A stretch of 41,613 nt of DNA from positions 1 through 41,613 of the forward strand of contig JBBTYZ010000015.1 in the NCBI GenBank assembly GCA_038061595.1, in the 5' to 3' direction. The position numbers were made by a program, and so were the translations under genes. A model generated the notes under the pieces. It had not been told where the DNA came from and did no database searches. It saw nothing but the letters and a program-made list of their open reading frames with translations. The DNA comes from Patescibacteria group bacterium (lineage in GTDB: Bacteria > Patescibacteriota > Minisyncoccia > UBA6257 > GWB1-50-10). Of this stretch, positions 4,649 to 41,048 are shown in pieces. The stretch's first letter is position 1; every line of letters begins with the position of its first letter.

Positions 4649-4657
4649 AAACATAAC

Positions 4658-4683: not shown

Positions 4684-4705
4684 ATTCAACGGCTACCATA
4701 TACGT

Positions 4706-6028: not shown

Positions 6029-6040
6029 TAAATCAACAAT

Positions 6041-16009: not shown

Positions 16010-16597
16010 TTAAAATTCCTTCTCGACTTCCTCACAAATGACGTGCAACACCATTGTGTGAACCTCCTGAATCCGCGGAGTGTTTCTGGAAGGCACGACG
16101 ATTGATATGTCTGCGACGCCCCTCAAGGCCCCTCCATCGTTACCAAGCAGGCAGACGGTTTTAATGCTCATTTCTTTCGCCTTCTTTACTGCCTCAATTA
16201 TATTCTTTGAATTACCACTCGTGGAAATGCCGAAGAAAACATCTCCAGAAACCCCCAGCGCTTCTACTTCTCTTGCGAAAAGAGAATTGAAATCATAGTC
16301 GTTACTCCAGGCAGTCAGAGCAGATGTATCGGTTGTGAGCGCTATCGCCGGATGCCCCTTTCTTTCTCGTTTATATTTACAGACAAATTCTGCAGCGAAA
16401 TGCTGGGCATCCGCTGCCGAACCACCATTCCCCGCAACAAGAATCTTGTTCTTGTTTTTGAAACAATCTTTCACCAAAGAAACTGATTCGTGGACACTTT
16501 TTAAAAAATTGGCGTCATGCAAAAGAGCCGTACGCAAGGCCATAGACTCATTTATGTGGTCATTTATATAAGAATAATCACTGCCCATAACCATCAT
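16010..16597 (-). CDS. gmhA: D-sedoheptulose-7-phosphate isomerase (SIS domain)
   Basis: 195 aa with GNGGSAADAQHFAAEF, ISTSGNS and the conserved QE.H segment (RIQEVHTMVLH). Confidence 0.88.
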   Translation of the reverse strand: MMVMGSDYSYINDHINESMALRTALLHDANFLKSVHESVSLVKDCFKNKNKILVAGNGGSAADAQHFAAEFVCKYKRERKGHPAIALTTDTSALTAWSNDYDFNSLFAREVEALGVSGDVFFGISTSGNSKNIIEAVKKAKEMSIKTVCLLGNDGGALRGVADISIVVPSRNTPRIQEVHTMVLHVICEEVEKEF

Positions 16598-22028: not shown

Positions 22029-22850
22029 TTATTTAGATAGTTCTTTTAAAGCTGCTTTTAGATCCGACTCGTTTGGGTATTTATAGTGCCATTCAATCCT
22101 GTCTTCCAGAAAAGAAACCCCCTTTCCTTTTATGGTATGGGCAATTATCGCGGTTGGTTTGTTTTTTTTGAGCGGTATTCGCGCAAATGCTTTTTCTAAA
22201 GAAGTGAAATTATTCCCATCCGCCTCAATCGCCTCCCAGCCAAAAGCTAGAAATTTGTCGGGGACCGGGTCTATATTCAAAACCTCTTTTGTTCTGCCAA
22301 AAGATTGCCATTTATTGTAATCCACGATAGCTATCAAATTATCCAAATTATTATGGCCGGCAAACAGTATTGCTTCCCAGGTTGAACCCTCGTCCAATTC
22401 CCCGTCGCTTATAACCACAAAAACACGGTGCTTGCTTTTCATTTTTTTTCCCGCAAGGGCCATACCGGTACCAACCGGAAGTCCGTGTCCCATCGATCCG
22501 GTAGTCGCCTCTATTCCCGGGACTCCGCTCATGGTTGTTATGCCAACGAATTTACTGCCATTCACACAATAGGTATCCAATTTATTTTTGCTGAAAAATC
22601 CCCTGTCGGCTAAAACGGCATAAAGCGCAGAAGCGCCCCACCCCTTACTCAAAATAAATCTGTCTCGCGTTTTGTTTTTAGGATCTTTTGGGTCTATTTT
22701 TAAAATAAAATTATACAAATAAATCAAAATATCCAGCACGGAATAGGCCGAACCCAAGTGCGATGCCCTTGCCTTAAATATCATCTCTATTATCCGCTTC
22801 CTTAGCTCCTTGCCCTTCTTTTTTAAAAGATTGATCTCTTCTTTTTTCAT
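22029..22850 (-). CDS. Transketolase, N-terminal (ThDP/PP-binding) subunit
   Basis: 273 aa with ASHLGSAYSVLDIL, GSMGHGLPVGTGMALAG and VISDGELDEGSTWEA...NNLDNLIAIVDYNK. In the last string the usual GDG of the ThDP motif reads SDG. Confidence 0.85.
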   Translation of the reverse strand: MKKEEINLLKKKGKELRKRIIEMIFKARASHLGSAYSVLDILIYLYNFILKIDPKDPKNKTRDRFILSKGWGASALYAVLADRGFFSKNKLDTYCVNGSKFVGITTMSGVPGIEATTGSMGHGLPVGTGMALAGKKMKSKHRVFVVISDGELDEGSTWEAILFAGHNNLDNLIAIVDYNKWQSFGRTKEVLNIDPVPDKFLAFGWEAIEADGNNFTSLEKAFARIPLKKNKPTAIIAHTIKGKGVSFLEDRIEWHYKYPNESDLKAALKELSK

Positions 22851-26332: not shown

Positions 26333-27397
26333 TTACTTTATGCCGAACTCATTCATTAATATTTCCAATAATTTCTTAACAATGCTATCCAATAATTCTC
26401 CGCCATTTAAAATTCTTTCCCGTCCGGCCTTGGCAATACGCTCCCGCAATTCTGGATGTTTTAGATAATAATCAATCTTCTCTTTCATTTCTTCGTACGA
26501 ATCAAAGAAATCGGTTTCTTTGCCAGCTAAAAGCATTTTCTCTGCCTCTTCGGTTCTCTCGTGAAGCATAAAACCTCCGCACAATGGAATCTCCCAACTC
26601 CGGCACGCAACGTATTCTTGATTATGTTTGCGCATAAAAGCCAGAGCGATCTTGCTCGCACCCAAGACTCTCGCCATATCTTCGCAATACACGCCCCCAG
26701 GTACAATACGATTTTTTCGACGCAGACAAGAATTCCAAGGAAGCCTTCCCCACGAATTGCCGTAGATCTTAATGTCATATCCATCCCGACACAGTTTTTC
26801 TAAATATTCGGATCGATTTTCCTTGGCGTAAGTGCCAATAAAAACAACGTCCGCACCAAGTTTTTTTCGGTCTCCTTCAGTGATTAAGACCGGGTGATGA
26901 CAACTCGCGTCAGCAGAAACCGTTAGATAAATTGCCCGCTTAGCGCCCCACCTTAGGAGTGGTTCAACATTTGCGGATATAGCCGCCAGATGGCAATCAT
27001 ACAAAGGAATAGATTTATAAAAATAAGTACTCCCCGACTTCGTAAAATCAACATGGTCCGGATACCAGGAGATTAACTTAGCGAATTTTTTAAGCTCCAC
27101 AACAGTGCTGGGATATATTAAAATGGGTTTCATAAAAAGAATGAAACCAAACTTACCAACGCGCGCTTTTTCAACAATAATATTATTCAATTTTTTGATA
27201 CCGGAGCCGAAATAGATGGGGGTTGGCAACAACCCGCTAGCAATAAAAAACCTGCTCATTACTCGATTAAAAAGAGATGGCGTGAAATATTGATTGGTAT
27301 TTACGAGCTGTACATCTACGCCAAGCTTCAACAAATTATCGTAAATCAAACCCATTGATCCGCCCGGGCCAAGCTCACCGACTAATAATATTTTCAT
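26333..27397 (-). CDS. CgeB-family / DUF3880-type glycosyltransferase-like protein
   Basis: The C-terminal region SWEIPLCGGFMLHERTEE...FDSYEEMKEKIDYYLKHPELRERIAKAGRERI matches the Glyco_trans_1_2/CgeB pattern. The start was moved to the ATG at 27397 (MKILLVGELG), 10 nt after the upstream stop, giving 354 aa. Confidence 0.6.
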   Translation of the reverse strand: MKILLVGELGPGGSMGLIYDNLLKLGVDVQLVNTNQYFTPSLFNRVMSRFFIASGLLPTPIYFGSGIKKLNNIIVEKARVGKFGFILFMKPILIYPSTVVELKKFAKLISWYPDHVDFTKSGSTYFYKSIPLYDCHLAAISANVEPLLRWGAKRAIYLTVSADASCHHPVLITEGDRKKLGADVVFIGTYAKENRSEYLEKLCRDGYDIKIYGNSWGRLPWNSCLRRKNRIVPGGVYCEDMARVLGASKIALAFMRKHNQEYVACRSWEIPLCGGFMLHERTEEAEKMLLAGKETDFFDSYEEMKEKIDYYLKHPELRERIAKAGRERILNGGELLDSIVKKLLEILMNEFGIK

Positions 27398-29685: not shown

Positions 29686-30438
29686 TTAGACTAACGGCAA
29701 ATTGCTCACTCCCTCCAAGTTCTTATCAAAATCATTCCGTGCTTTCTCATAACTTTCGGGTGTTCCAATATCGATGAAGTAATTCTTAAACACAAAACCA
29801 TAAACTTTCGCATCTCTAATGTGTTTTTCGAAAAAATCTTTCTCTATCGAAAATGTTTCAGGCAAATCAAAATTGTTCAAAACGCCCTTTCCGAATATAT
29901 ACATCCCGCCGCTAATTAGTCCTGGGCCGCCCCTTCCTGTTTTCTCTTTAAAATTCATTATCCTATTATTCTCATCTACGGTCACAGTTCCAAAATTTCG
30001 AGTATCATCCATTTGGCTTAGACAGATAGAGACGTGAGCACCGTGCTTAATGTGTTGTTTTAAGAAGTGATCGTAATTGATAGGGAAGAACGTGTCGCCG
30101 TTCAAGACGAGCACCATCTCATGCGAGGAATTATTAATAGCCTTCTTAATTGCTCCTCCTGTACCCAAAGGACTTTCTTCTTCTGAAAAACTTATCGTTG
30201 TACCTTTCGGAAACGATCGTCCTTTCATATGTTCGCGCATTTTGTCTTTCATATGGCCAACAGAAAGCATTATGTCCCGAAAGCCACATTGCAAAAGATT
30301 ATCAATCGTGTAATCCAATAGAGTTTTATTTTTTATCGGGGCTAAGACCTTGGGCCTATCAGCAATAACCGTCTGCAAACGAGTTCCAAGGCCGCCGGCA
30401 AGGATAATAACGCGTATATTTTTAAGTTCGGTGTTCAT
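29686..30438 (-). CDS. hddC: Sugar-1-phosphate nucleotidyltransferase, best fit D-glycero-alpha-D-manno-heptose-1-phosphate guanylyltransferase
   Basis: 250 aa with VIILAGGLGTRL...DRPK.LAPI, PLGTGGAI and NGDT. Its short single-domain size and its position next to the HddA-like kinase fit HddC/WcbM. Confidence 0.7.
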   Translation of the reverse strand: MNTELKNIRVIILAGGLGTRLQTVIADRPKVLAPIKNKTLLDYTIDNLLQCGFRDIMLSVGHMKDKMREHMKGRSFPKGTTISFSEEESPLGTGGAIKKAINNSSHEMVLVLNGDTFFPINYDHFLKQHIKHGAHVSICLSQMDDTRNFGTVTVDENNRIMNFKEKTGRGGPGLISGGMYIFGKGVLNNFDLPETFSIEKDFFEKHIRDAKVYGFVFKNYFIDIGTPESYEKARNDFDKNLEGVSNLPLV

Positions 30439-30449: not shown

Positions 30450-31439
30450 CTATTTTGTTTGATAAATTATATGGCTACCCTCATCTTCAAAAGCAAATGG
30501 GACGTGGAGCAATTTAGAAAGCGCCGTTTTAACTCTTTCCTGGTCTTTCGGCCGAGCATATACCAACAGGAATCCGCCCCCACCGGCGCCCAAGAGCTTG
30601 CCACCCAAGGCTCCCGCCTCCCTGGCCCGTGCATAAAAGCCGTCAATAGTATCGTTTGATATTTTTGGTGAAAGACTCCTTTTTAACTCCCAGCTTTTAT
30701 GGAGAAGTCTACCAAAATCCCCCAGCCAATCGCCATTGCTCTTAAGCACAAGAACAGCCTCATCTACCATGTTATGCATTGCCTGTAATTCAATTTTTTT
30801 ATTAGGGATGTTTTTAATCTGTTCGGTTGCAATCTCCGAAGCATTCCTAGAAAAACCAGTGAAGAAAAGCATCATATGTTTTTGTAACTCCTCAAGCCTC
30901 CCATCGCTTAACTTTATTGGCGTGACAGCGAAGCTACCATCTTTATGGAAGTTAATCTTATTAAATCCGCCATATGCAACAGCAACTTGATCTTGCGACC
31001 CAACGTTTTCTTTGATGCAATTCTGCTCAATATGAATCGCTTCCTCTGCTAATTTCTTTCTATCAGGACTGATTCCTTTGAGTCCATAAAGTGCGTGCAA
31101 AAAACCAACAGTAAAAGACGAGCTTGAACCCATACCCGATCTAGCCGGCACATCTCCGTTATAGTGGATAGACAACCCATCATTAAAATCCATAAAACGG
31201 AGGGTCTCCCGAACTGACGGATGCGCGATTTCATCAATACTATTAACCTCCTCCATTCGAGACCAAGCCACCCTGGTTTTATAAGGAAAATATGGGGGAA
31301 GACGTATCGCGTGCAAATACGAATATTTGTTAATTGAGGTGCTAAGTACTGCCCCGCCATATTCTTTGACCCACCCCGGATAATCTGTCCCACCCCCAAA
31401 AAACGATATGCGCAGTGGTGTTTTTGTAATAACCATCAT
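30450..31439 (-). CDS. hddA: GHMP sugar kinase, best fit D-glycero-alpha-D-manno-heptose-7-phosphate kinase
   Basis: 329 aa with TKTPLRISFFGGGTDYP, GMGSSSSF (GHMP motif II) and LLGAGGGGFLL (motif III). This is the HddA/WcbL-like layout. Confidence 0.72.
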   Translation of the reverse strand: MMVITKTPLRISFFGGGTDYPGWVKEYGGAVLSTSINKYSYLHAIRLPPYFPYKTRVAWSRMEEVNSIDEIAHPSVRETLRFMDFNDGLSIHYNGDVPARSGMGSSSSFTVGFLHALYGLKGISPDRKKLAEEAIHIEQNCIKENVGSQDQVAVAYGGFNKINFHKDGSFAVTPIKLSDGRLEELQKHMMLFFTGFSRNASEIATEQIKNIPNKKIELQAMHNMVDEAVLVLKSNGDWLGDFGRLLHKSWELKRSLSPKISNDTIDGFYARAREAGALGGKLLGAGGGGFLLVYARPKDQERVKTALSKLLHVPFAFEDEGSHIIYQTK

Positions 31440-31444
31440 AATAA

Positions 31445-32311
31445 TTAGCTGTTAAATATATTGACCAACTTTTCGATAATATCATCAATATTGTTCTTCG
31501 GAAACCATTTCAAAAGTTTTTGAGATTCGGAAAAATTGGACGTGAGAGTAAAAGCCTGTGTTGTAGAGGGCGTAAAAACAACCTTGCTCTCAAGCCTGCT
31601 TGCCACCTTTGTGGCTAAATCACGCATCGAAATACGGTTAGAAGAAAGGAAAAATGGATAATAACCCGGCTCCGCAACGGTGCCATATTCAACCGCCTTA
31701 AGTATCCCCTCGGCCACATCATCTATCCAAATCCACTCTCTTTCGTGACGACCCTCACCATAAATTTCTATATCCTTGTGAGCAAGTGCGGTTTTTATAA
31801 ATTCAATCGGAGCGTGGGGAAGATATGTATTCTTGCCCAAAACCATAGTTGGTCGAACCGTTACGATTTTCATTTCTGGAGCTTCCTTAATAAACTGCAT
31901 CATAGAAAATTCGGCAGAGGCCTTGCTCGCACTATACCCGTGTTTTGGACTAAAATTAGAAAATTGAGTTTGGTGTTCGCCGATCTTGTTTTCTCCATGA
32001 ACAGTCATGGAGCTTGTGAAGATATAATTTTTCACACCCGCCTCATGGGCAGCTTTTAAGACTTTTAAATTCCCCATTACGTTTGTCTCAAAAAGATCTT
32101 GAATTCCCGGCGCTTCTTTCATGGTTCCCAAGATTGCAGCTAAATTAATTACCACGTCTGGCTTCTCAATCCCTAAACCGCGCGTGAATGTCTCCGTATT
32201 TCGGACATCTTCTTTGGTCAAATCGAATATCACAACATCGTGCGTTCCTTTCGCTTTCTCTTGGAGCGCCTTACCTATAAAACCCTGTCCACCAAAAATT
32301 ACTATTTTCAT
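31445..32311 (-). CDS. Extended SDR (NDP-sugar reductase/epimerase)
   Basis: 288 aa with IVIFGGQGFIG, TSSMTVHG and YSASK (YxxxK). It has a 4-nt ATGA overlap with the upstream gene. Confidence 0.75.
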   Translation of the reverse strand: MKIVIFGGQGFIGKALQEKAKGTHDVVIFDLTKEDVRNTETFTRGLGIEKPDVVINLAAILGTMKEAPGIQDLFETNVMGNLKVLKAAHEAGVKNYIFTSSMTVHGENKIGEHQTQFSNFSPKHGYSASKASAEFSMMQFIKEAPEMKIVTVRPTMVLGKNTYLPHAPIEFIKTALAHKDIEIYGEGRHEREWIWIDDVAEGILKAVEYGTVAEPGYYPFFLSSNRISMRDLATKVASRLESKVVFTPSTTQAFTLTSNFSESQKLLKWFPKNNIDDIIEKLVNIFNS

Positions 32312-33558
32312 GTTTGAAACTTACCACGACCAATAGATGAGTAACGGACGCCGAGTTGTTTAACGTCTTCTTTCCTGAACATATTGGCTGCGTCTATGAT
32401 TATCTTATTTTTCATAGAAGAAATTAATTTTTTATATGGCGCTTCTTTGAATTCTTTTTTACCTACAGCTATAACTACCGCATCTGCGCTGGAAAAGACA
32501 TCACCAATTGAGTTTACTGTATATGCGTTATTCTCGACCAGGGGATCATAGAGCACCACTTCTGCCCCCTTTTTCTCTAGGCGTTTCATAAGAGGGGCGA
32601 CCAAGGACCCTCTCATATTTGAAGTAAATGGTTTATACGTTGCTCCTAAAAAGCCCAACTTTTTACCCTTCACGTTTTTGAAATATTTACCAATCTCTTT
32701 TTCCATGAATTTATTATGTTCGTTATTCACCGCAATGATCTGCTGCAACATTGGCAACTTAATCTTAATTTTCTTGCCTAAATTTATTAACACTTTAAAA
32801 TCTCTTTCTACGGTTCCGGCAAAGCCCAAACCCGGTAAAGTATAGGCCTTGGGCCCAACTCGTTTGTCAGACCGCAAAATCTGTCCGATATTTTCAAAAT
32901 TAACATTGAAATACTCACTAAATTTGGTAAGTTCTGAGACAAAACTCACCGTCATAGCTACGAAAATATTTGCTGCGTGTTTGGACATTTCCGCTTCTTC
33001 TAAGGTGACGCTGAATTTGGGAGAATTTATTTTATCAAAGAGACGTAAGACGCCTTTCACCACCCCTCCGTCTCCTCCTAACACAATATAATCTGGCTCA
33101 ACAAAACGCTTGAGCGCATCTCCAAATCTCAAAAATTCTGGGAAATAAATAATTTCTATTTTTTTATATTTCTTCTGCCAAATTCTCATTGTGCCTATGG
33201 GGGTTTGAGAAGAAACTACCACCACCCTAAATAGACCACTCTCCACAACTTTTCTGAAGTGCCCCCCTATGTCATTCATATCAACACCGGTGGGAATTAT
33301 ATTTACATCTTGTGCAAAAAAACAAATATCCGCTTTATTATTTGGATCGGCAATATTATTAGAGAAAAAGAGCTTGTTGCTCTCTTTAAATTTTTTTATT
33401 CCATCGGTAATTCCTGGTTCAAAAACCGGCGGCTTACCCATTTCATAATCTTCGTAAGCCTCATTACCCGCAACTAATCGCACTGTGTGACCCAACTCAC
33501 AAAGACCTATCGCATACACTTCAGCCAAGTGCCATGAGCCATAGACGGTTATCTTCAT
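32308..33558 (-). CDS. UDP-glucose/GDP-mannose dehydrogenase-family homolog with degenerate cofactor and catalytic motifs
   Basis: 416 aa with the three-domain layout of nucleotide-sugar dehydrogenases (PEFLRFGDA, AEMSKHAANIFVAMTVSF, GATYKPFTSNMRGS). The N-terminal GxGxxG reads GSWHLA, and the GFGG(S/Y)C.PKD catalytic-Cys motif reads GFAGTVERD. Confidence 0.65.
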   Translation of the reverse strand: MKITVYGSWHLAEVYAIGLCELGHTVRLVAGNEAYEDYEMGKPPVFEPGITDGIKKFKESNKLFFSNNIADPNNKADICFFAQDVNIIPTGVDMNDIGGHFRKVVESGLFRVVVVSSQTPIGTMRIWQKKYKKIEIIYFPEFLRFGDALKRFVEPDYIVLGGDGGVVKGVLRLFDKINSPKFSVTLEEAEMSKHAANIFVAMTVSFVSELTKFSEYFNVNFENIGQILRSDKRVGPKAYTLPGLGFAGTVERDFKVLINLGKKIKIKLPMLQQIIAVNNEHNKFMEKEIGKYFKNVKGKKLGFLGATYKPFTSNMRGSLVAPLMKRLEKKGAEVVLYDPLVENNAYTVNSIGDVFSSADAVVIAVGKKEFKEAPYKKLISSMKNKIIIDAANMFRKEDVKQLGVRYSSIGRGKFQT

Positions 33559-34490
33559 ATATTTGAGAATTGATTACGCTTAATTATTCGATAACCTTTT
33601 ATAAGCTCAGAGATTGCGCCCTGAATAGATACCTGTGGCTTGAAACCACTTTTTTCAATCTTTTCGTTAGAAATAATATAATTTCTTTTATCTGGGTCTT
33701 TGCCAAATTCCGATTCTATAAAAACGAAGTCTGGGACTTGTTTCTTTATTTCGGCACAAAGCTCCCTCTTGCTTAAGTTTGCATCAGAGAGACCAACATT
33801 ATAAGAATTGTTTTTCATCTTTTCAAAATTATTCATCACATGCATAAAAGCGCGCGCCACATCTCGAACATGAATATAATTTCTTTTGAAATCGGCCTCA
33901 AAAAGAACGACAAATCTATCATTCACCGCTCTGTAGACAAAATCGTTCACGAGAAGATCTAAGCGCATCCGGGGGCTAATTCCACAAACCGTTGCTAATC
34001 GAAGCGTTACCGCATTACCAGAAGCAAAAAGTTTCTTTTCGGCTTCCACTTTAAGCTGACCATACAAAGACACTGGGTTTAATGGCGATTCTTCAGTGCA
34101 AAATTCCGTACTTTTACCTATGCCATAACCACTATTAGTATTGGGGAAGATAATCTTCTGTTCCGGTTGTCGCGATGCGATTAACAACTCAATCGCCTCA
34201 AGATTAACGGTTCTTGCTGCGACCGGGTCTTTATCGCAAAGCGGGGCTCCCACAAGACAAGCAAGGGGAAATATAAACTCCTTACCTGCAATATGTTTTT
34301 CTAGCAAAGCCTTGTCCCTCGCATCACCCCGAACTATCATTAGGTTCGGTGAATTGCACACATCCAGAAGGGGGGCCTGGCCATAAATAAAACTATCCAG
34401 AACAGTAACTTCGTGCCCGGCACGCAAGAGCTCTGGAACAAGAATCGCACCAATGTATCCCGCACCACCCGTGACTAAGATTCTTGCCAT
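33555..34490 (-). CDS. Extended SDR, NAD-dependent epimerase/dehydratase family
   Basis: 311 aa with ILVTGGAGYIGA and YGQLK (YxxxK). It has a 4-nt overlap with the downstream gene. Confidence 0.78.
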   Translation of the reverse strand: MARILVTGGAGYIGAILVPELLRAGHEVTVLDSFIYGQAPLLDVCNSPNLMIVRGDARDKALLEKHIAGKEFIFPLACLVGAPLCDKDPVAARTVNLEAIELLIASRQPEQKIIFPNTNSGYGIGKSTEFCTEESPLNPVSLYGQLKVEAEKKLFASGNAVTLRLATVCGISPRMRLDLLVNDFVYRAVNDRFVVLFEADFKRNYIHVRDVARAFMHVMNNFEKMKNNSYNVGLSDANLSKRELCAEIKKQVPDFVFIESEFGKDPDKRNYIISNEKIEKSGFKPQVSIQGAISELIKGYRIIKRNQFSNI

Positions 34491-34491: not shown

Positions 34492-35061
34492 TTACTCTAC
34501 ATACTTCCCCGCCTCATCGCGCGGAGAAAGGATTGGATTCTTGATAGGCCACTCGATATTAAACCTTGGATCATCATAGCGGTAACTTGATTGCCTCTTG
34601 GGATCATAATAATTTGACTGCAGATAATGAAATACAATATTGTCGCTCAAGGCCAGATGACCATTGCCAAACCTTGGGGGGACAAGCACTTGTAAATGGT
34701 TTTCCCCAGAAAGCGTGAAAGACTCCCATTTACCAAATTCTTTTGATGTTTCATCACAATTTACAACAACGAAATAAAATTCGCCCTGGTGACAAGAAAT
34801 AAGCTTCCAATTATCCGAGTCAGCGTGTAGGCCTCTAAGCACACCTTTTTTGGAAATGGAATAATCCTGAGTCACAAATTCCACCGGAATTCCAAGTTTC
34901 TGAAAATCAACTTTATTATAGGGTGATACATACTTACCCCGAAAATCCTCATGTACATCAGGTTTCAGGAGCAAAACACCATCCAATGTTGTCTTTTCTG
35001 CTTTAATCACAACCCTATAGTACCACGAGAAATAACCCAGTGACAAGGTTATGGAAAACAC
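34492..35061 (-). CDS. RmlC-like cupin, NDP-4-keto-sugar 3,5- (or 3-/5-) epimerase
   Basis: It has TTLDGVLLLKPDVHEDFRGKY, LRGLH and the ..FHYL..YYDP....YRYDDP pattern of dTDP-4-dehydrorhamnose 3,5-epimerase-like proteins. The listed start is GTG at 35061. Homology suggests the GTG at 35010 (VIKAEKTTLDGV) may be the real start. Confidence 0.8.
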   Translation of the reverse strand: MFSITLSLGYFSWYYRVVIKAEKTTLDGVLLLKPDVHEDFRGKYVSPYNKVDFQKLGIPVEFVTQDYSISKKGVLRGLHADSDNWKLISCHQGEFYFVVVNCDETSKEFGKWESFTLSGENHLQVLVPPRFGNGHLALSDNIVFHYLQSNYYDPKRQSSYRYDDPRFNIEWPIKNPILSPRDEAGKYVE

Positions 35062-35100: not shown

Positions 35101-35619
35101 TCAAATTAAATCCAGGACTTCTTCTGGACTCTGAACAATATGATCAGGCGAACAATTTGCGAGATATTTAGCCTTAAACTCATTTTTCACAAAAATCGTC
35201 TTGCATCCCACCGCCTGGCCAGCTAAAACATCCTTATCACCATCGCCAACCAATATTGACTGTGTGCAATCAATATTTAAATCTTGCGCCGCTTGTCGGA
35301 ACATCCCGGCCTTAGGTTTCCGGCAATCACAATTGTCTGCATCTACATGCGGGCAATGATACACGGCGTCTAACTCATGATCCAAAAGACGTTCCATCTC
35401 ATTATGGAGTTTATGCAATTCGACTTCAGAAAGTAACCCTTTCGAAATTTGGGGTTGATTCGTTACCACAACCACCTTGTAGCCGTGTTCTTTTGCGGCA
35501 TGGATTACACTTTTTATTCCCGGCATAAGCTCGAACCCGTCCTTGAGGAGACGATAACGCCCGAGTTCCGCACATATAACACCGTCGCGATCAAGGAAAA
35601 GCGCCTTACGCTTTTCCAT
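35101..35619 (-). CDS. gmhB: D,D-heptose 1,7-bisphosphate phosphatase (HAD-IIIA)
   Basis: It has ALFLDRDGVI (DxD nucleophile motif), VVVTNQPQISKG, the Zn-knuckle CPHVDADNCDCRKP and GDGDKD. The start was moved from the track's TTG at 35652 to the ATG at 35619, which overlaps the upstream gene by 14 nt. Confidence 0.82.
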   Translation of the reverse strand: MEKRKALFLDRDGVICAELGRYRLLKDGFELMPGIKSVIHAAKEHGYKVVVVTNQPQISKGLLSEVELHKLHNEMERLLDHELDAVYHCPHVDADNCDCRKPKAGMFRQAAQDLNIDCTQSILVGDGDKDVLAGQAVGCKTIFVKNEFKAKYLANCSPDHIVQSPEEVLDLI

Positions 35620-36652
35620 ATATTTTGTTGATATCCCTAAGATGAGCAGCAAAATATTCTTTGTGTCTCTTGATTATTACGTTCTCCGATTCCATCAACT
35701 TTTCCAAAAACTTCACTGGATCTTTTTCGGTTATAGCATTGATTTCCGCCCACACCTCATGTCCGTGCATATATCCTTCGATCTCTGTCAAAAAATCATT
35801 TTTATAGACATTACGAGCGCCCCACACCCCACGATCTTGTCGATTCACTGCATCACCAACATGGACATACATATCGTTGTTAAAAAGCACTTTCTGAAAT
35901 ACGAAAGAATGGAAAATATCATCCATCCGTTCCGCAAAAGGCCACATGAGCGCGAGTGGAAAGATAAATTTTGCATACACCGTATTCTGAGTGTTATACG
36001 GCGACCAAACATTTTTTAGGCAATAATTTTTTTCTCTGATTGACTCAAGGGGTAGACGCTTGGGGTAAACCAGACGGGTTCTAGCATCAATATCTGGGTC
36101 ACCTAGGGAAATTCCTTGAAAAAGACCAATCTCTTGAGGTTGAATAGCATCTTTTATTGCCCTAACCTCTGTAGCATCTTGCCACAAAAATGGCATGGGA
36201 AAACCACGTGGATACATTTCTATAGGGGCCGGAGCGGTCTTCAGATAGTTATGCCAGGGAGCAGGCACAACCTCTTTTGTAACTTCGACTACTTGATTTA
36301 CTGGTCTCGTAAGAACATTGTGCCAACTTTCAAAATAATCGGGGTCGGGAATGTTGTCATCATCAATAGTAAGAATAAAATCCGGATTAAGCTCTAAGGC
36401 ACGCAGAAATGCGGCGTTTCTTCGTCTCTGACTTTTCCAACCAATAAGACTGCTTATCTCAAAACGCTCTTGGTTTTTGGGTGATAAATACTCAATCTTA
36501 CATTTGAATTTCTTGTCATCAAATGGCTTTGAGGTTGTGTCTCCGGCAATAACAAATACAACCTCTGAAAATTTACTTTTTGCCGCCAATGAATCGTAAG
36601 GCAGGTATCCCTCCTCTCCGTTTATGGTTGTAGAAACAATTACTAATTTCAT
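35606..36652 (-). CDS. RGP/GT75-like protein (reversibly glycosylated polypeptide / UDP-arabinopyranose mutase-like fold)
   Basis: 348 aa, and by-eye alignment to plant RGP/UAM runs along the whole length. LVIVSTTIN matches IVIPTIRN and FILTIDDDN matches YIFTIDDDC (DxD). YPRGFPMPF matches VRGYPFS and includes the Arg corresponding to the reversibly glycosylated Arg. GISLGDPDIDARTRL matches GLWLNIPDYDAPTQL, and ERMDDIFHSF matches GRYDDMWAGW. Confidence 0.5.
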   Translation of the reverse strand: MKLVIVSTTINGEEGYLPYDSLAAKSKFSEVVFVIAGDTTSKPFDDKKFKCKIEYLSPKNQERFEISSLIGWKSQRRRNAAFLRALELNPDFILTIDDDNIPDPDYFESWHNVLTRPVNQVVEVTKEVVPAPWHNYLKTAPAPIEMYPRGFPMPFLWQDATEVRAIKDAIQPQEIGLFQGISLGDPDIDARTRLVYPKRLPLESIREKNYCLKNVWSPYNTQNTVYAKFIFPLALMWPFAERMDDIFHSFVFQKVLFNNDMYVHVGDAVNRQDRGVWGARNVYKNDFLTEIEGYMHGHEVWAEINAITEKDPVKFLEKLMESENVIIKRHKEYFAAHLRDINKIYGKA

Positions 36653-36671: not shown

Positions 36672-37628
36672 TTATATTCTTCCTTTTTCCTTCATGTCCG
36701 ATTCAATCCAATTATACAGTTCTTTTATTCCTTCTTGAAGAGAAACGCTTGGCTTCCAATTAGAATTGAACTCTTTCTCAACAACGTTCTCCGGGCCAAG
36801 TTTTCGTTCAATGCCCCTTGGCGCATCAAGTTTGTGCTTCCTATTAAACTTTATTCCGGCAGCAGCTTCAACCGCATCAACCAACTGATTTATAGTTACA
36901 AATTCCCCACTCCCGAGACGCACCGGTTCTGTAATCTCGCTTTCTGTTAATTTGCGTATTCCATCCACCGCGTCTCTCACAAACATAAAGCTTCTAACCT
37001 GCGTACCGTCTCCCCAAATTTCGAGATCAAGATTCCCGGAAGATTTAGCGATAACCGCCTTGCGACAGAGTGCGGCAGGAGCCCTCTCTCTACCACCCTC
37101 GTAGGCATCGTGTGGCCCATATATATTCTGGAGACGGCCAATCCTAGTAGGCAATCCGAAATCTTCACGAAAATATTTACAAAGTTTTTCGCTGAAAAGT
37201 TTTTCCCAAACATGGCCGTCCTCAATAACGTCTGTTAGGGCCTTGCCCTCTTGGGGGACTTCGGCCACAGAAACTGCATTTGAAGAAGAATAGAAATACC
37301 GTCCCACTTTTGCCGCTCGCGCAGCCATAAGAAGGTGGGTATTAATTAGAACAGAAAGCATGGTTAGGGCTTTCTGTTTCTCAATAAAGTTAACCCCGCC
37401 GATTTCAGCGGCCAAATTATATACCCCATCAACGCCCTCCATCGCCTTTTCACAACTCTCTTTAAGAGTGAGGTTTAAGGAGATGTTTTCCGCTTCCTTG
37501 TGGAGTTGTTTCCATTCGGAAAGTCCCCGCTTCCCAACAGCACGCACTCGAAAACCATCACTTAAAAGACTTCCTACTAAATGGCCACCAATAAGCCCGC
37601 TTCCGCCCGCAACTAATATTCTTTTCAT
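36672..37628 (-). CDS. GDP-mannose 3,5-epimerase (GME)-family extended SDR with non-canonical active site
   Basis: 318 aa with ILVAGGSGLIGGHL. The long strings IGRLQNIYGP, EGGRERAPAALCRKA and WGDGTQVRSF mirror plant/bacterial GME (IGRFHNIYGP, KGGREKAPAAFCRKA, WGDGLQTRSF). The YxxxK motif reads HVWEK (His139). Confidence 0.7.
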   Translation of the reverse strand: MKRILVAGGSGLIGGHLVGSLLSDGFRVRAVGKRGLSEWKQLHKEAENISLNLTLKESCEKAMEGVDGVYNLAAEIGGVNFIEKQKALTMLSVLINTHLLMAARAAKVGRYFYSSSNAVSVAEVPQEGKALTDVIEDGHVWEKLFSEKLCKYFREDFGLPTRIGRLQNIYGPHDAYEGGRERAPAALCRKAVIAKSSGNLDLEIWGDGTQVRSFMFVRDAVDGIRKLTESEITEPVRLGSGEFVTINQLVDAVEAAAGIKFNRKHKLDAPRGIERKLGPENVVEKEFNSNWKPSVSLQEGIKELYNWIESDMKEKGRI

Positions 37629-37657: not shown

Positions 37658-38935
37658 CTAAGTTTCGTAAATCTTAAATTCCGGCATGGGTACGATAAAT
37701 TTTCCGCCATTTTTAAAAAATTCTTTTTCACGTTCTCTGAATTCTGGAAGAAAATGCCAGGCTAAAACAAAGTAATAATCGGGTTTTTGACTCCGCGATT
37801 GTATCTCTGACACGACGGGAATTTTGGTACTCACTGTTATCTTGCCCCACTTCAATGAGTTTCTATCGGCAATCGCTTCGATCAATTCTGGTTTTAATCC
37901 GTAAAACTGCAGAGTCGTATTCCCTTTAGTAGACGCCGCATAGCCGTGAACCTTCTTACCACTAGCTATCTCTTGCTTTATGAAAGACACAACCCTCTCC
38001 TTTGTTTCAATGGTTCTTTTGGCAAATCTCTCATAAATATCTTTGTCGTCTAAACCGAGTGATTTTTCTTTTTCGCGTACCGCTAAAACTCTTTGCTTCG
38101 CACCATCATAAACACTCAAGTTCTTGCCCAATCCTTTTTTTCTGACATATATCCGAACACTGCCTTCATTAATGTGCTCCCTCATTTCTAAATCGAAAAC
38201 CTCAAGTCCGTGACGGGCGAGCAAGTTCTCAAGAGCCATCAATGAGTAGTATTCAAGGTGCTCATGACAAATGCCATCAACCGCGTTCTGCCCGAGGAAA
38301 GACGGCAGATACATCATTTGGATAACAAGAATCCCGTCATCATCTAAACACTTCACGATATCACTAACGAAAATATTAGGGTTATCCAGGTCATAAAACA
38401 TCGCAATCGCAGTAATGCTCTTGGCCTTGGCATTGCCAAACTCTTTCTCCCAAGAGTTGTGGTTAAAAAAATCAACTATTATTTTAGTAGTCCCCTTTTT
38501 GCCTTCTTCTTCTAGGTTTTTCGCTGGCTCAAAACCAACTGTTTTCAACCCAGGAATTTTATAACCACGTAGAAGCGTGCCATCATTTGCACCTATATCT
38601 ATAACCAAATCGCCACTTTTCAAACCGACAATTTCGGAAACCTTGTTTGCTATCCCATTTAACTCATCCGTCATCGTCTGGTTAATCCCTGACTTATACC
38701 AATAATTTCTATACATAACCTCTCCAGAAACGGTATGTCTGAGCTGAAGCAAACCGCAACCGCCATCTTTTTGATTGCACAAAACCAATTCTAAGGGCGC
38801 CTCAGTGCCCTGATATTCTTGCCCCGGATCCAAAAAATCCGAAACATATAGATTACCGAGTGAAAAAATCTGAGTCAGATTTTTAAAACCACAAGAGCGG
38901 CATGACTCAATAACACGAATCATTGGATTTGACAT
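37658..38935 (-). CDS. NDP-4-keto-sugar C-methyltransferase (TylCIII/EryBIII-type; Zn-finger + SAM MT + C-terminal MT_14 domain)
   Basis: 425 aa with an N-terminal 4-Cys module CRSCG...L.LVLCNQKDGGCGLLQL, SAM motif I VIDIGANDGTLL, and the C-terminal domain typical of sugar C3/C5 C-methyltransferases (HGYAASTKGNT...KWGK..P). Confidence 0.82.
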   Translation of the reverse strand: MSNPMIRVIESCRSCGFKNLTQIFSLGNLYVSDFLDPGQEYQGTEAPLELVLCNQKDGGCGLLQLRHTVSGEVMYRNYWYKSGINQTMTDELNGIANKVSEIVGLKSGDLVIDIGANDGTLLRGYKIPGLKTVGFEPAKNLEEEGKKGTTKIIVDFFNHNSWEKEFGNAKAKSITAIAMFYDLDNPNIFVSDIVKCLDDDGILVIQMMYLPSFLGQNAVDGICHEHLEYYSLMALENLLARHGLEVFDLEMREHINEGSVRIYVRKKGLGKNLSVYDGAKQRVLAVREKEKSLGLDDKDIYERFAKRTIETKERVVSFIKQEIASGKKVHGYAASTKGNTTLQFYGLKPELIEAIADRNSLKWGKITVSTKIPVVSEIQSRSQKPDYYFVLAWHFLPEFREREKEFFKNGGKFIVPMPEFKIYET

Positions 38936-38950: not shown

Positions 38951-40009
38951 TCAATTCTGGAACTTACCGTCAACTCCGACAAGTTTTAGGTCGCTCTCTA
39001 ACATTAGCTTAACGAGCTCTTTAAATCTGACTTTGGGTTCCCACCCCAATATTTGTTTGGCCTTAGAATAATCCCCTTGCAAAACATCCACTTCGGCCGG
39101 ACGAAAATACATTGGATTTATCTTAAAAATCGTCTTGCCACTTTTTTTATCAATGCCTTTTTCGTTCACACCATGCCCGTCCCAAATCAAATCAATGCCC
39201 ACCAAACGACACGCCTCTTCAATAAATTCGCGAACCGAATGAGTTTCGTTCGTAGCCAACACATAATCGTCCGGTTTATCTTTCTGCACCATTAGCCACA
39301 TGCCATAGACATAATCCTTGGCATAACCCCAATCTCTTTTTGCGTCAATATTGCCGACATGAACGATGTCTAACTTTCCGGCAACAATATTAGCTAAACC
39401 CAACGTGATTTTCCGAGTAACAAAATTTTCGCCACGCCTTGGCGATTCATGATTGAAAAGAATGCCGTTCGAAACGTGCAGTCCATAACTCTCGCGATAA
39501 TTAACCGCTGCCCAATAAGCGTAAACCTTAGAAACTCCGTAAGGACTTCTCGGGTGGAAGGGAGTTGTCTCCTTCTGAGGCGTTTCTTTGACCAACCCAA
39601 ACATTTCAGAACTTGAAGCTTGGTAAAAACGCGTCTCGGAGTTATCGTGACGAATTGCCTCTAGAAGACGGGTTGTTGAGAGAGCAACAGCGTTGCCAGT
39701 AAATTCGGGAATATCAAAACTAATCCGAACATGGCTTTGAGCGCCGAGATGATATACCTCATCAGGCTTCAAATCACGAATGATCCGATGAAGAGAACCG
39801 GAGTCGGTTAGATCACCGTAGTGAAGGGTAATCAAATTCTTCTTGCCGTGCATATCGGGGAAAAGATGTTCGATTCGCTCGCGATTAAAAGTGCTCACAC
39901 GCCGTACTAAACCATGAACCTCATAGCCCTTCTGAAGCAAAAGCTCCGCTAAATAAGAACCGTCTTGACCGGTTATGCCAGTGATAAATGCTCTTTTTTG
40001 TTTTCCCAT
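38951..40009 (-). CDS. gmd: GDP-mannose 4,6-dehydratase
   Basis: 352 aa with [39 protein letters not shown] (T/S-S-E), [12 protein letters not shown] (YxxxK) and [17 protein letters not shown]. Confidence 0.92.
39950..39979. repeat. 30-nt stretch identical between the two gmd paralogs (second copy at 40986-41015)
   Basis: TAAATAAGAACCGTCTTGACCGGTTATGCC occurs at both positions on the plus strand and encodes [10 protein letters not shown] on the minus strand. A further shared 15-mer, CCATGAACCTCATAG, lies just upstream in both. Confidence 0.85.
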
Positions 40010-40064: not shown

Positions 40065-41048
40065 TCAGACGTTTTTTAAATCAGACTCAACCATCATCTG
40101 CACCAAATCCTGAAAATTGGTTTTTGCCTTCCAGCGCAATGCGTTTTCAATTTTTTTCGGATTCGCAAGCCATTCTCTAGCCTCGCCTGGCCTAAAAAGA
40201 GATTCGTCTATGGAAACATAATCTTTGGAATCCAATCCAACAAATTTAAAAGCTGCCTCAACAAATTCACGAATGGTATGGCTCTTGCCCGTTCCAATCA
40301 CATAGTCATCGGGCTTATCCGCTTGAAGCATCAACCACATCGCCTCGACATAATCACCGGCAAATCCCCAATCTCGTCTCGCATCCAGATTGCCAAGACG
40401 AAGCGTTTTTTCTTTACCGGATTTAATACGGGCGACTGCAAGGCTAATTTTTCTCGTGACAAATTCAAAACCTCGACGAGGAGATTCGTGACTAAACGCG
40501 ATGCCAGAACAGGCGAACATGTAATGAGTGTCACGATAAAACTTAGTAAGATATAGTCCGGAAGCCTTGGAAACTCCGTAGGGTGTTGTCGGAGCAAATC
40601 GAGCCTGCTCGTCTTGAGGCGAATCACCTAAACCACTAAAGAGATCGCTCGTAGCAGCGAAGTAGAAACGAGATTTAGGACTAACATCTCGTAACGCAGA
40701 CAACAAATAGTGCGTACCCGATACGTTTGTAATCATTGTTCCAAGTTCATCATTAAAAGATTCTGTAATACTCGCAATCGCCGCCAAGTGATAGACCTCG
40801 TCAGGCCTCACCTTATTGATTAACTGCCAAACGGTTGCGTAATTTGTAATATCGCCTGAATGAAGAATTAGATTTTTGTTCTCAAGAAGATGGTTGATGC
40901 GCGAAAATCGGGCAGGGCCACTCTCGAGGGCGACGCGTCTTACCAAGCCATGAACCTCATAGTCTTTTTTAAGCAGAAGCTCGGTTAAATAAGAACCGTC
41001 TTGACCGGTTATGCCGGTTATTAAAGCTACCTTTCTTTTATTTTCCAT
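40065..41048 (-). CDS. GDP-mannose 4,6-dehydratase paralog (shorter; possible GDP-heptose-specific dehydratase/oxidase)
   Basis: 327 aa with [37 protein letters not shown] and SHESPRRGFEFVTRKIS. The catalytic T-S-E reads T-S-D (AATSDLFSG). This is the only gene here with a clear SD (GAGGTGA, 7 nt upstream of the ATG). Confidence 0.82.
   Translation of the reverse strand: MENKRKVALITGITGQDGSYLTELLLKKDYEVHGLVRRVALESGPARFSRINHLLENKNLILHSGDITNYATVWQLINKVRPDEVYHLAAIASITESFNDELGTMITNVSGTHYLLSALRDVSPKSRFYFAATSDLFSGLGDSPQDEQARFAPTTPYGVSKASGLYLTKFYRDTHYMFACSGIAFSHESPRRGFEFVTRKISLAVARIKSGKEKTLRLGNLDARRDWGFAGDYVEAMWLMLQADKPDDYVIGTGKSHTIREFVEAAFKFVGLDSKDYVSIDESLFRPGEAREWLANPKKIENALRWKAKTNFQDLVQMMVESDLKNV

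Follow-up and report, generated by a model that had tools for sequence, protein, structure and literature searches.

We examined a 41,613-nucleotide stretch of DNA from a Patescibacteria MAG (hereafter the window) and found that a 348-aa protein encoded there, currently annotated as 'hypothetical', is probably a soluble mutase of the GT75 kind that interconverts the pyranose and furanose forms of a GDP-sugar and depends on a divalent cation, by analogy with MtdL, Hyg20 and the plant UAMs (rough probability 0.7). We infer the mutase activity, together with its metal, nucleotide and substrate. The initial annotation of the window had likewise proposed a candidate non-flavin GT75-type mutase rather than an ordinary transferase, for instance one that supplies a heptofuranose or 6-deoxyhexofuranose donor, and the homology, Foldseek matches, residues and gene linkage reported below fit that proposal. 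The gene and its direct neighbours are:

35606..36652, minus strand, GT75/MtdL-like candidate GDP-sugar pyranose/furanose mutase, 348 aa (ORF; phmmer, profile, AF2, Foldseek)
36672..37628, minus strand, diverged GDP-mannose-3,5-epimerase (GME) paralog (E=2e-56 to At GME 2C59)
35101..35619, minus strand, GmhB-like heptose-1,7-bisphosphate phosphatase (NCBIfam PRK08942, E=4e-43, 147 bits vs cut-off 178)

The candidate mutase gene runs from an ATG at 36652 to a TAA stop at 35608-35606. A 19-nt spacer separates it from the stop of the upstream SDR (36672), and the ATG of gmhB at 35619 creates a 14-nt overlap through which the two genes are translationally coupled. We consider the gene real because the database contains one identical protein and 195 homologs of its product; all the listed close homologs are named 'hypothetical' and carry no Pfam domain. 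The 348-aa ORF, its place between gmhB and the SDR and the 14-nt overlap had all been given in the initial annotation, with boundaries that agree exactly with ours, and we add the minus strand, which it did not state. Its placement of the gene in a sugar-modification block, not beside glycosyltransferases, also holds for the neighbouring ORFs of the window, which are nucleotide-sugar tailoring genes with no adjoining glycosyltransferase.

Among PDB sequences, MtdL was the sole significant relative of the protein (phmmer, E=1e-17; family profile, E=1.8e-26). The AF2 model (pLDDT 93.2, pTM 0.92; pLDDT falling to 70 at residues 271-280) had no membrane segment, and its best Foldseek match was again MtdL (E=1.6e-21, TM 0.77), followed by rice UAM2 (8CID; E=3e-11, TM 0.65, 13% identity), both over the whole chain; the best matches outside GT75, generic GT-A transferases, reached a TM of at most 0.47. 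The GT-A Rossmann region, the GT75-specific core and the C-terminal helical region were all matched. Overall identity to MtdL was about 20% in the Foldseek alignment, a value that we counted against the mutase reading. The protein is a remote MtdL homolog within a large bacterial clade that lies nearer to MtdL than to the plant RGPs.

The Pfam scan of the protein gave no match to PF03214 (RGP) even at E≤10, which also counted against the mutase reading, no match to PF03385 (STELLO) and none to PF03275 or the FAD-binding Glf fold; among GT2 models only Glyco_tranf_2_3 appeared (E=0.035, 14.5 bits vs cut-off 27). A sub-threshold NCBIfam match to DfrA35 (E=0.04) was rejected as spurious. In a search of PDB sequences with the family profile, rice UAM2 was not recovered at E≤1. 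We take the missing RGP, STELLO and Glf matches to reflect limited sensitivity and do not hold them against homology. The profile collected 90 relatives of 25-30% identity at E≤1e-31, of which 68 matched PF03214 (best 5.8e-14) and 47 matched the STELLO model PF03385 at E≤0.01; by sequence, the latter matches indicate a shared superfamily and not membership. One relative of 1162 aa (P0194) had STELLO matches only, and analysis of its fusion partner was uninformative. The predicted link to plant RGPs therefore rests on modelled structure (TM 0.65, 13% identity) and on intermediates (the 68 of 90 that match PF03214).

These results change part of the initial annotation, in which the protein was called 'plant-type': its nearest characterised relative is the bacterial MtdL, and PF03214 misses it. 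The likeness to plant RGPs over the whole length, claimed there, rests on structure and intermediates and is not demonstrable by HMM methods, since PF03214 misses the protein and the profile misses rice UAM2. As for the two checks it had suggested, hmmscan with PF03214 and PF03385 returned nothing for this protein, while Foldseek ranked MtdL and rice UAM2 clearly above the generic GT-A folds.

Catalytic and pocket residues were compared in an alignment of 54 close homologs (A2), in an alignment of 90 distant sequences (A3) and against MtdL, the crystallographically and biochemically defined GDP-L-Galp/GDP-L-Fucp mutase of the A201A pathway of Marinactinospora thermotolerans (PDB 7XPR/7XPS/7YUA; PMC9937993):

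36425..36436, minus strand, pocket loop K73-S74-Q75-R76, equivalent to MtdL H85-S86-D87-N88 (heptose-class signature [KR][ST][QP][RK])
36356..36364, minus strand, DDD (DxD) motif, residues 97-99, equivalent to MtdL D109-D111 (A2, A3 and MtdL alignments)
36206..36208, minus strand, Arg149, equivalent to MtdL Arg159 (A2, A3 and MtdL alignments)
35918..35929, minus strand, R242-M-D-D245, with R242 equivalent to MtdL R257 and D245 to D260 (alignments)
35837..35839, minus strand, Gln272 at the site of the MtdL Mn2+ ligand His287 (profile alignment)

The DxD motif was found in TIDDDN at residues 97-99, as noted earlier. D97-D98-D99 was invariant in A2 (n=54); in A3 (n=90) D97, D99 and N100 were invariant and D98 was at least 90% conserved, and D97-D98-D99-N100 aligned to MtdL D109-N112. 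In MtdL, D109-D111 bind Mn2+, ribose and sugar, and Arg159 is the proposed nucleophile, an autoglycosylated Arg that has been equated with that of plant UAMs (PMC9937993). Arg149, which had already been singled out as the equivalent of the reversibly glycosylated Arg, lies in YPRGFP, aligns to Arg159 and was invariant in the 54 close and the 90 distant sequences. Moreover, MtdL R257 contacts the beta-phosphate and O5, D260 is the proposed general base, and mutating D109, R159, D195, Q229, R257 or D260 abolishes activity (PMC9937993). These six residues correspond to D97, R149, D187, Q222, R242 and D245 of our protein: all six were invariant in A3 (n=90), and five of them in A2 (n=54), where R242 was at least 90% conserved and replaced by Gln in one homolog (L011). 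Such (near-)invariance of the catalytic set (R149, D187, Q222, D245, DDD and R274) at 25-30% identity argues for selection on catalysis.

Two further MtdL residues, the Mn ligand His287 and Asp87, are not kept according to the alignments, which corrects the initial annotation. The His287 site was occupied by Gln in 53 of 54 (A2) and 87 of 90 sequences (A3). The equivalent His is conserved in active AtRGP1-3, and its loss in AtRGP5 has been linked with inactivity (PMC9937993). We counted Gln272 against the mutase reading, yet Gln is the norm of the clade. To our knowledge no characterised protein comes from this Gln-type clade, a point weighed on the same side. MtdL Asp87 contacts the sugar O4, and both D87N and D87S are inactive (PMC9937993); its counterpart here is Gln75, and Pro, Ile or Gln in the family, again counted against the mutase reading. 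Other equivalences were R274 with MtdL R289, R280 with MtdL H292 and Thr221 with MtdL Ser228, and loop A carried a 3-aa insertion (VWG).

Thr13 and Ser86 are the GDP-selective residues of MtdL, and plants have Pro and Asp there, the Asp blocking GDP binding (PMC9937993). Ser74 aligned to Ser86, a position held by Lys in the sister classes, and Thr8 may be the equivalent of Thr13, an assignment from a T-x-I motif only, as the HMM alignments begin at residue 61. Across about 60 loci, the pocket-loop motif sorted strictly with genomic context, residues 73-76 reading, for example, KSQR, NKIM or NKYA in different classes.

By analogy with MtdL, the GT-A Rossmann half would bind the GDP moiety (T8/I10/D38, R78 and D97-D99), and the metal would be held by D99 and by Gln272 in place of the MtdL His and would, together with R242, R274 and R280, grip the diphosphate. 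With D187 orienting it and D245 removing its proton, Arg149 would then attack C1 and displace GDP, giving a transient Arg-sugar adduct in which the sugar ring could open and reclose via O4, before GDP re-attacks to yield the GDP-furanose.

In those approximately 60 related loci, the gene was accompanied by one of three independent routes of GDP-sugar supply: GDP-heptose genes, Gmd together with an SDR resembling fucose synthase, or canonical GDP-mannose 3,5-epimerase. In five loci (L008, L016, L017, L023, L052) a canonical GME (to At GME, E=7e-103 and 1e-93) lay 2-21 nt upstream. The fucose-synthase-like SDR, for which NF047922 was the best match but below cut-off, adjoined the gene in L004 and L054; a nearby Gmd in L004 passed its cut-off, and L058 had an adjacent Gmd-like ORF. 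GDP-heptose genes were present in all 10 class-B loci that had at least 3 kb of downstream flank, and they also surrounded a homolog of 31% identity from a Pelagibacteraceae genome (L025). The window belongs to this heptose class (class B) by both context and pocket loop. In minimal loci the gene was paired only with GME and a separate glycosyltransferase-like gene, which fits an arrangement of precursor supply, then mutase, then transferase. The clade comprised about 2,200 clusters at 50% identity (E≤1e-3) and spanned CPR phyla, Planctomycetota, Gammaproteobacteria and Pelagibacteraceae. In the literature searched, we found no earlier description of bacterial polysaccharide loci with GT75 homologs.

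The GME paralog was directly upstream of the candidate mutase gene in 17 of 17 class-B loci and is an obligate upstream partner of the heptose-class members. The neighbour had been described as a 'GME-like SDR': its relationship to GME stands (E=2e-56), but it is not a canonical GME, with Ala, His and Arg replacing the catalytic Cys145, Tyr174 and Lys217 in the residue-level alignment. Without these residues, formation of GDP-L-Gal through the known mechanism is unlikely, and we rejected the paralog as a working GME feeding GDP-L-Gal to the mutase. That the partner itself is without the canonical catalytic residues was counted against the mutase reading.

The remaining sugar genes of the window that bear on the substrate are:

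34492..35061, minus strand, RmlC-type cupin, 3- or 3,5-epimerase on an NDP-4-keto sugar (PF00908, E=6e-48)
33555..34490, minus strand, SDR strongly similar to PDB 6VO6 (Cj1427-like; E=1.4e-109)
32308..33558, minus strand, nucleotide-sugar dehydrogenase of the UDP-Glc/GDP-Man dehydrogenase family (TIGR03026, 203.9 bits vs cut-off 189.8)
31445..32311, minus strand, extended SDR, SDR_31445 (Pfam scan)
30450..31439, minus strand, HddA-like heptose-7-phosphate kinase, GHMP family (NF049969, E=3e-44, best match, below cut-off)
29686..30438, minus strand, HddC-like heptose-1-phosphate guanylyltransferase (NF049965, E=1.7e-52, best match, below cut-off)
16010..16597, minus strand, GmhA sedoheptulose-7-phosphate isomerase (TIGR00441, 220.2 bits vs cut-off 209.45)

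GmhA completes the predicted GDP-heptose pathway of the window. The PDB matches of the cupin included C. jejuni GDP-4-keto-heptose epimerases (E about 1e-28) and do not separate dTDP from GDP-heptose specificity. The SDR similar to 6VO6, a structure that we take to be Cj1427, had counterparts directly downstream of the mutase gene in seven loci (L011, L012, L018, L033, L037, L049, L057), and the nucleotide-sugar dehydrogenase was kept in many heptose-class loci. SDR_31445, which may be a C4-reductase or act in tailoring after the mutase, was a second conserved partner of the family: orthologs occurred in class-B loci, in 13 class-A' loci they were convergent to the 3' end of the mutase gene within 2-115 nt, and in L006/L007 they overlapped it. 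A PF13524 glycosyltransferase of the window was rejected as ortholog of the ~370-aa partner protein seen at other loci, with which it showed no BLAST or HMM relationship. Finally, the Pfam scan of all window ORFs of at least 120 aa found no flavin-dependent Glf-type mutase, in agreement with the initial annotation, and the sole flavoprotein of the window (47-976) was thioredoxin-reductase-like.

If the protein is a mutase, a heptose-derived substrate is rather likely, a hexose of the GDP-L-galactose/L-fucose type doubtful and any other substrate improbable. The most likely substrate is a GDP-heptopyranose whose stereochemistry has been edited, plausibly to an L-galacto-type configuration; the enzyme would convert it into a GDP-heptofuranose that serves as donor for the surface glycan built by the ~32-kb cluster. 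This heptose assignment is guilt by association, which we counted against the mutase/heptose reading; the heptofuranose pathways of C. jejuni HS:10 and HS:41 are predicted to use Glf-type enzymes (the GDP-6-deoxy-heptopyranose mutases HS10.16 and HS41.15, besides the CDP-fucose mutase HS41.17), and we counted this against the heptose assignment.

The same GT75-type mutase might act in the window on a GDP-hexose instead of a heptose, such as GDP-L-galactose, GDP-L-fucose or another 6-deoxy or C-methyl hexose supplied by two Gmd paralogs, a C-methyltransferase and the GME paralog. MtdL and Hyg20 do act on GDP-L-Gal and GDP-L-Fuc, the sister classes pair with canonical GME or with Gmd and the fucose-synthase-like SDR, the immediate upstream gene is derived from GME, and the same-strand block holds Gmd_A (TIGR01472, 542 bits), Gmd_B and a C-methyltransferase for NDP-hexoses a short distance upstream. 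We nevertheless consider this unlikely: the GME paralog has lost its three catalytic residues, the class-B pocket loop is unlike the loops of the GME-linked and Fcl-linked classes, and Gmd and the C-methyltransferase, rejected as conserved partners, are absent within 10 kb at the other class-B loci, where the heptose genes are always present.

An ordinary GT-A glycosyltransferase, or an Arg self-glycosylating or STELLO-like protein that does not release an NDP-furanose, would share the GT-A fold and DxD motif and could account for the weak Glyco_tranf_2_3 match and the STELLO matches of 47 of 90 relatives; autoglycosylation is known in GT75 members, and the His-to-Gln and Asp87 changes allow for altered chemistry. 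This is improbable given the low TM of transferases (≤0.47, vs 0.77 for MtdL), the match to the mutase-specific core and C-terminal helical domain, the model without membrane segment, the tailoring genes in place of glycosyltransferases next to the gene and the minimal loci, in which GME and mutase come with their own glycosyltransferase-like gene. That GT75 proteins may be purely self-glycosylating or non-catalytic (class-2 RGPs, STELLO) was counted against the mutase reading in general. We regard as very improbable a non-catalytic GT75-like subunit, comparable to the class-2 RGPs AtRGP5 and OsUAM2, that binds or scaffolds the neighbouring SDR or GME paralog. It would agree with the absent Mn-ligand His, as in inactive AtRGP5, with rice UAM2 (which we take to be a non-catalytic class-2 RGP) as second-best structural match, and with the strict pairing to a GME paralog itself devoid of catalytic residues; but in the inactive RGP the equivalent of Arg257 is lost as well, while R242 is kept in all but one close homolog, the catalytic set is (near-)invariant across relatives of 25-30% identity, and Gln272 is itself nearly invariant.

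Returning to the mutase reading, it is possible, as a tentative proposal, that the heptose subclass (loop [KR][ST][QP][RK], Gln for the metal His) represents the first GDP-heptopyranose to GDP-heptofuranose mutase that depends on a metal and needs no flavin, obligately paired with an Ala/His/Arg GME-derived SDR and opening a new heptofuranose route, in CPR and independently in SAR11-type bacteria, that is unrelated to the Campylobacter Glf-type enzymes. The surface glycans of CPR bacteria probably contain furanose sugars made with no need for the usual flavin enzyme, a concrete and testable feature of their little-known cell envelopes. A large GT75-related clade goes unrecognised by current annotation, and in surface-glycan loci its members consistently occur with genes that supply GDP-L-galactose, GDP-L-fucose or GDP-heptose. 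If its members are active, L-galactofuranose, L-fucofuranose and heptofuranose may be widespread in environmental bacterial glycans, the absence of Glf alone could not exclude furanose biosynthesis, the GT75 metal site would tolerate Gln for His, and the context-sorted pocket loop would offer a testable specificity code for the enzymatic making of rare GDP-furanoses.

MtdL and Hyg20 (hygromycin A pathway) are bacterial GT75 Mn2+-dependent GDP-L-galactose/GDP-L-fucose pyranose-furanose mutases (PMC9937993). They are the only two characterised bacterial GT75 mutases, and both come from actinomycete antibiotic pathways. The 348-aa protein resembles MtdL as its best sequence and structure match, in the same three-region architecture, in the retained DDD, nucleophile Arg, Asp195/Asp260 pair and Gln229, Arg257 and Arg289 equivalents, and probably in a Thr at the guanine-selective position (Thr8, by the T-x-I motif); genes supplying GDP-L-Gal and GDP-L-Fuc accompany its sister classes, in keeping with the substrates of MtdL and Hyg20. 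It differs from MtdL in its low identity (~20%), in Gln272, Gln75, Thr221, Arg280 and the 3-aa loop insertion, in escaping PF03214, and in its setting, a CPR cell-surface glycan locus amid GDP-heptose genes and not an actinomycete antibiotic cluster.

The plant RGP/UAM enzymes (rice UAM1, AtRGP1-3) reside in the cytosol or at the Golgi and provide the Araf of cell walls. They belong to the same superfamily by structure and intermediates and share the DxD, the Arg in an RG[FY]P context and, as predicted here, a non-flavin metal-dependent mutase chemistry; in contrast, identity is 13% (rice UAM2) with no direct HMM match, and plants use UDP-sugars and have Pro and Asp at the base-selective positions, where our protein has, probably, Thr8 and Ser74. 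With the Glf/UGM-type enzymes of C. jejuni the protein would share the net reaction, NDP-pyranose to NDP-furanose, and it shares a capsule/O-antigen sugar-tailoring setting beside GDP-heptose genes, whereas the fold is unrelated and FADH2 would be replaced by a divalent metal and an Arg nucleophile. Should the heptose assignment hold, the two would be analogous, non-homologous solutions to the same problem.

We examined the 348-aa GT75/MtdL-like target protein and its gene neighbourhood in the window, where every gene between ~9.5 kb and 41.6 kb (about 9547-41594) is on the minus strand; these genes form one glycan cluster of ~32 kb.

Genes of the window relevant to the target
16010-16597, minus: GmhA (TIGR00441, above cut-off)
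glycan cluster, minus: HddA-like kinase, GmhB and HddC-like guanylyltransferase
31445-32311, minus: SDR_31445, another SDR, a tailoring gene near the target
32308-33558, minus: nucleotide-sugar dehydrogenase (TIGR03026, above cut-off)
among the tailoring genes near the target, minus: RmlC-type cupin
among the tailoring genes by the target, minus: SDR matching PDB 6VO6 (E=1.4e-109)
35606-36652, minus: target, ATG at 36652, TAA stop at 35608-35606
36672-37628, minus: GME-like SDR (GME homology, E=2e-56)
37658-38935, 38951-40009 and 40065-41048, minus: NDP-hexose C-methyltransferase and two Gmd paralogs

As read from the sequence, the upstream SDR gene ends 19 nt before the target ATG, and the gmhB ATG at 35619 reproduces the 14-nt overlap described in the initial annotation. 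The other features it reported were also confirmed as real, since the DxD motif TIDDDN (D97-D99) and the Arg149 context YPRGFP are present and did not vary among 54 close homologs. The target has the same sequence as a 'hypothetical protein' from the Patescibacteria-group MAG GCA_964361385.1, and none of its 196 word-sharing homologs from the database search had a precomputed Pfam domain.

The profile scan proposed in the initial annotation gave no PF03214 match for the target even at E≤10, and the NCBIfam scan gave no useful match. The search of PDB sequences recovered one family only, MtdL (7XPR, 7XPS, 7YUA, 8HL8), at E=1e-17 with the target alone. With the family profile the E-value was 1.8e-26, and this profile did not reach the plant structure at the sequence level. 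MtdL is a structurally characterised bacterial GT75 enzyme, a Mn2+-dependent mutase that converts GDP-L-galactopyranose and GDP-L-fucopyranose to their furanose forms (PMC9937993). We built a confident AF2 model from the family alignment (pLDDT 93.2, pTM 0.92), and its Foldseek comparison with the PDB pointed to GT75 structures: the top six matches were MtdL entries (E ~1e-21, TM 0.75-0.78), the next was rice UAM2 (E=3e-11, TM 0.65), and generic GT-A transferases ranked far below (TM ≤0.47). An exhaustive profile search returned 2,241 clusters at 50% identity (E≤1e-3); of 90 relatives sampled at 25-30% identity to the target, 68 matched PF03214 and 47 matched STELLO. Based on the MtdL matches, the Foldseek ranking and the PF03214 matches of these relatives, the target belongs to the GT75/RGP superfamily, where it is a divergent branch with bacterial MtdL nearest. 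The label 'plant-type' is inaccurate because the plant structure lies beyond the sequence reach of the family profile.

The MtdL residues defined by structure and mutagenesis in the MtdL paper were mapped onto the target through HMM alignments.

Equivalent residues of MtdL and the target
D109/D110/D111/N112 (DxD motif): D97/D98/D99/N100
R90: R78
R159 (nucleophile; the autoglycosylated Arg in plants): R149
D195: D187
Q229: Q222
R257: R242
D260 (proposed general base): D245
R289: R274

In the 90-sequence distant alignment, D97, D99, N100, R78, R149, D187, Q222, R242, D245 and R274 were invariant, and D98 was conserved at ≥90%. The Mn2+ ligand His287 of MtdL is replaced by Gln272; Gln occupied this position in 53 of the 54 close and 87 of the 90 distant relatives, thus it is the clade norm and not a defect of the target. 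Asp87, which is essential in MtdL, corresponds to Gln75. MtdL His292 corresponds to Arg280, which follows three inserted residues (VWG, residues 276-278, window 35819-35827, minus strand) in loop A, the diphosphate-closing loop. The other loci aligned over this region lack the insertion, and it falls in the only part of the AF2 model with low confidence (pLDDT ~70). Among GT75 features, the target has the fold, the DxD, the Arg, the Asp pair and the Gln/Arg, and lacks the PF03214 match, the His ligand and Asp87. According to the MtdL paper, GDP-specific MtdL carries Thr13 and Ser86 where UDP-specific plant enzymes carry Pro and Asp; the target has Ser74 and probably Thr8 there, Thr8 being placed by its T-x-I motif, as the HMM alignments begin at residue 61.

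Upstream of the target are the GME-like SDR, the C-methyltransferase (Methyltransf_14/13 domains), whose gene comes after the two Gmd paralogs, and these paralogs, which together with the methyltransferase imply that the cluster also makes a 6-deoxy sugar with a C-methyl branch. Gmd_A scored above the TIGR01472 cut-off (542 bits); Gmd_B scored below it (349 bits vs 415) and could be a GDP-heptose 4,6-dehydratase. The 6VO6 entry is presumably Cj1427, which functions as a GDP-heptose C4-dehydrogenase. The initial statement that the window lacks a flavin-dependent mutase was borne out, with no Glf-type flavoenzyme among its ORFs. The cluster, which sits in a reduced CPR genome, also contains at least 6 methyltransferases, FkbM-type ones among them, as well as a DegT aminotransferase, a UDP-GlcNAc 2-epimerase, several genes of the GT1/GT2/GT4 types and a Wzx-type flippase. 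A further flippase lies on the plus strand (2488-7942), along with a Bac_transf initiating transferase and an AsnB-like amidotransferase. A split transketolase-/E1-like thiamine-diphosphate enzyme pair (22029-22850 and 21092-22027, minus) recurs near family members in several unrelated loci (L006:3975-5980, L020:7223-9027, L054:13208-15119), a hint that two-carbon branched-chain sugars are made for the same glycans.

We compared the window proteins with the ORFs of ~60 loci in GTDB genomes and metagenomes that contain a family member. The pocket loop of 4 residues, corresponding to MtdL H85-S86-D87-N88, sorted strictly with gene context. Class A (NKIM and similar; including Pirellulales, Phycisphaerales and Taylorbacteria) has a canonical GME as partner, with E=7e-103 and 1e-93 to Arabidopsis GME and intact catalytic Cys/Tyr/Lys; in five loci this gene is 2-21 nt upstream, and in two others it lies within 1.1 kb. 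In class A' (loops such as NK[PS]A and GKSA), 13 loci have an SDR_31445-like gene (e.g. L006:7025-7936(-), L014:10907-11767(-), L015:3278-4186(-), plus 10 more loci) convergent to the GT75-like 3' end within 2-115 nt, overlapping in L006/L007, and a canonical GME lies 3.5-4 kb away in five loci. These SDRs are 46-51% identical to SDR_31445. The same family is retained in the heptose class, and by analogy it may act on the furanose product; Hyg26 acts on hygromycin fucofuranose. Class C (NKYA, KKFA, KRWA; L004, L054, L058) has an adjoining SDR best matching GDP-L-fucose synthase in L004 and L054 (E=2.5e-71 and 2.8e-54, both short of the cut-off), accompanied by a Gmd close by whose score in L004 exceeds its own cut-off, and only an adjoining Gmd-like ORF in L058; we take this gene set to be the Hyg20-type supply route.

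The window (KSQR) is one of 18 loci in class B, the heptose class ([KR][ST][QP][RK]). All 17 of these loci with upstream flank had a diverged GME paralog directly upstream and none a canonical GME, and all 10 with a downstream flank of ≥3 kb contained GDP-heptose genes. An independent link between a GT75-like gene and GDP-heptose genes occurs in an abundant marine lineage: in the SAR11-type genome Pelagibacteraceae AG-461-B04, a homolog 31% identical to the target (L025:10001-11086) has GmhA at 45 nt, HddA at 74 nt and GmhB at 608 nt on its flanks. Its loop reads NSFA, and it carries Gln where MtdL has His287 and His where MtdL has His292.

A conserved ~370-aa protein with a weak PF13524 (Glyco_trans_1_2) match, 43-46% identical across different context classes, is separated from the GT75-like gene by 9-49 nt in six distinct loci and by 2-5.5 kb in two more (L008:7084-8202, L009:7046-8170, L016:11060-12190, L047:1237-2352, L052:8306-9421, L019:870-2006, L004:9364-10476, L012:16525-17649), and is a candidate dedicated furanosyltransferase. 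The window held no ortholog at E<1e-5; its PF13524 gene (26333-27355) was rejected as such, being unrelated by BLAST.

The GME paralog of class B, which in the window is the GME-like SDR at 36672-37628 (orthologs e.g. L020:9045-9995, L011:8600-9538, L012:9033-10004), has Ala, His and Arg at Cys145, Tyr174 and Lys217, positions we take to be the GME epimerisation acid/base pair and the SDR catalytic Tyr, and a His in place of this Tyr is unusual for an SDR. The resulting motifs (xAV, H[VI]WEK, G..ERAP) and a deletion of 8-13 aa after the SSxAx motif were common to all 13 full-length copies, whereas SSAC/YGWEK/GGKEKAP was kept in 15 of 15 canonical copies. Because of these replacements and the deletion, the paralog probably does not catalyse classical GDP-mannose 3,5-epimerisation; it could instead act in the heptose branch as a stereospecific 4-keto reductase, work in tailoring after the mutase step, or serve as a partner with no catalytic role.

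The initial preference for a non-flavin nucleotide-sugar mutase over a transferase gains support from the MtdL homology, the Foldseek gap and three different GDP-sugar supply routes converging on one family, two of which make exactly the sugars converted by MtdL and Hyg20. This convergence, the strongest non-biochemical evidence, argues for a family of GDP-sugar mutases as opposed to transferases. The data likewise support correcting the earlier interpretation to an MtdL-like protein with a rewired GME neighbour and a metal site with Gln, not His. With homology, fold, residue conservation and linkage observed, we put the probability of a GT75-type NDP-sugar mutase at about 0.7. Chemistry, metal, nucleotide and substrate are inferred. 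By analogy with MtdL, D99 and Gln272 would hold a divalent metal on which the diphosphate of the bound GDP-sugar rests; R149, placed by D187 and deprotonated by D245, would displace GDP at C1; the ring of the Arg-linked sugar would open and reclose through O4; and re-attack by GDP would release the GDP-furanose.

If the enzyme is such a mutase, a heptose substrate is somewhat favoured. A GDP-heptopyranose is the most likely substrate for the window enzyme, given the tight operon with its gmhB overlap and the heptose genes on either side of class-B members, and plausibly has the L-galacto-type configuration of the substrates of MtdL and the sister classes. Action on a GDP-hexose instead is a live alternative. 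The nucleotide-sugar dehydrogenase is kept in many heptose-class loci (L011, L018, L020, L027, L029, L031, L037, L057) and the class-B loop acquires basic residues (K73 and R76 in the target); a uronic-acid substrate, hepturonic or mannuronic, is conceivable for class-B enzymes. For this widespread family without annotation, the mutase assignment is a solid and useful prediction of function, and the pocket loop offers a testable specificity code.

The target is a divergent GT75-superfamily member within a known enzyme class and would work like MtdL, Hyg20 and the plant UAMs, but it differs from MtdL in its own metal-site residue (Gln for His287) and specificity loop. It lies in a surface-glycan context, in contrast to the antibiotic context of the known bacterial GT75 enzymes, and we found no report of GT75 homologs in bacterial polysaccharide loci in the literature searched. 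In C. jejuni, Glf-type enzymes are credited with forming heptofuranose, so a heptose mutase of the GT75 type would be an analogous but unrelated solution.
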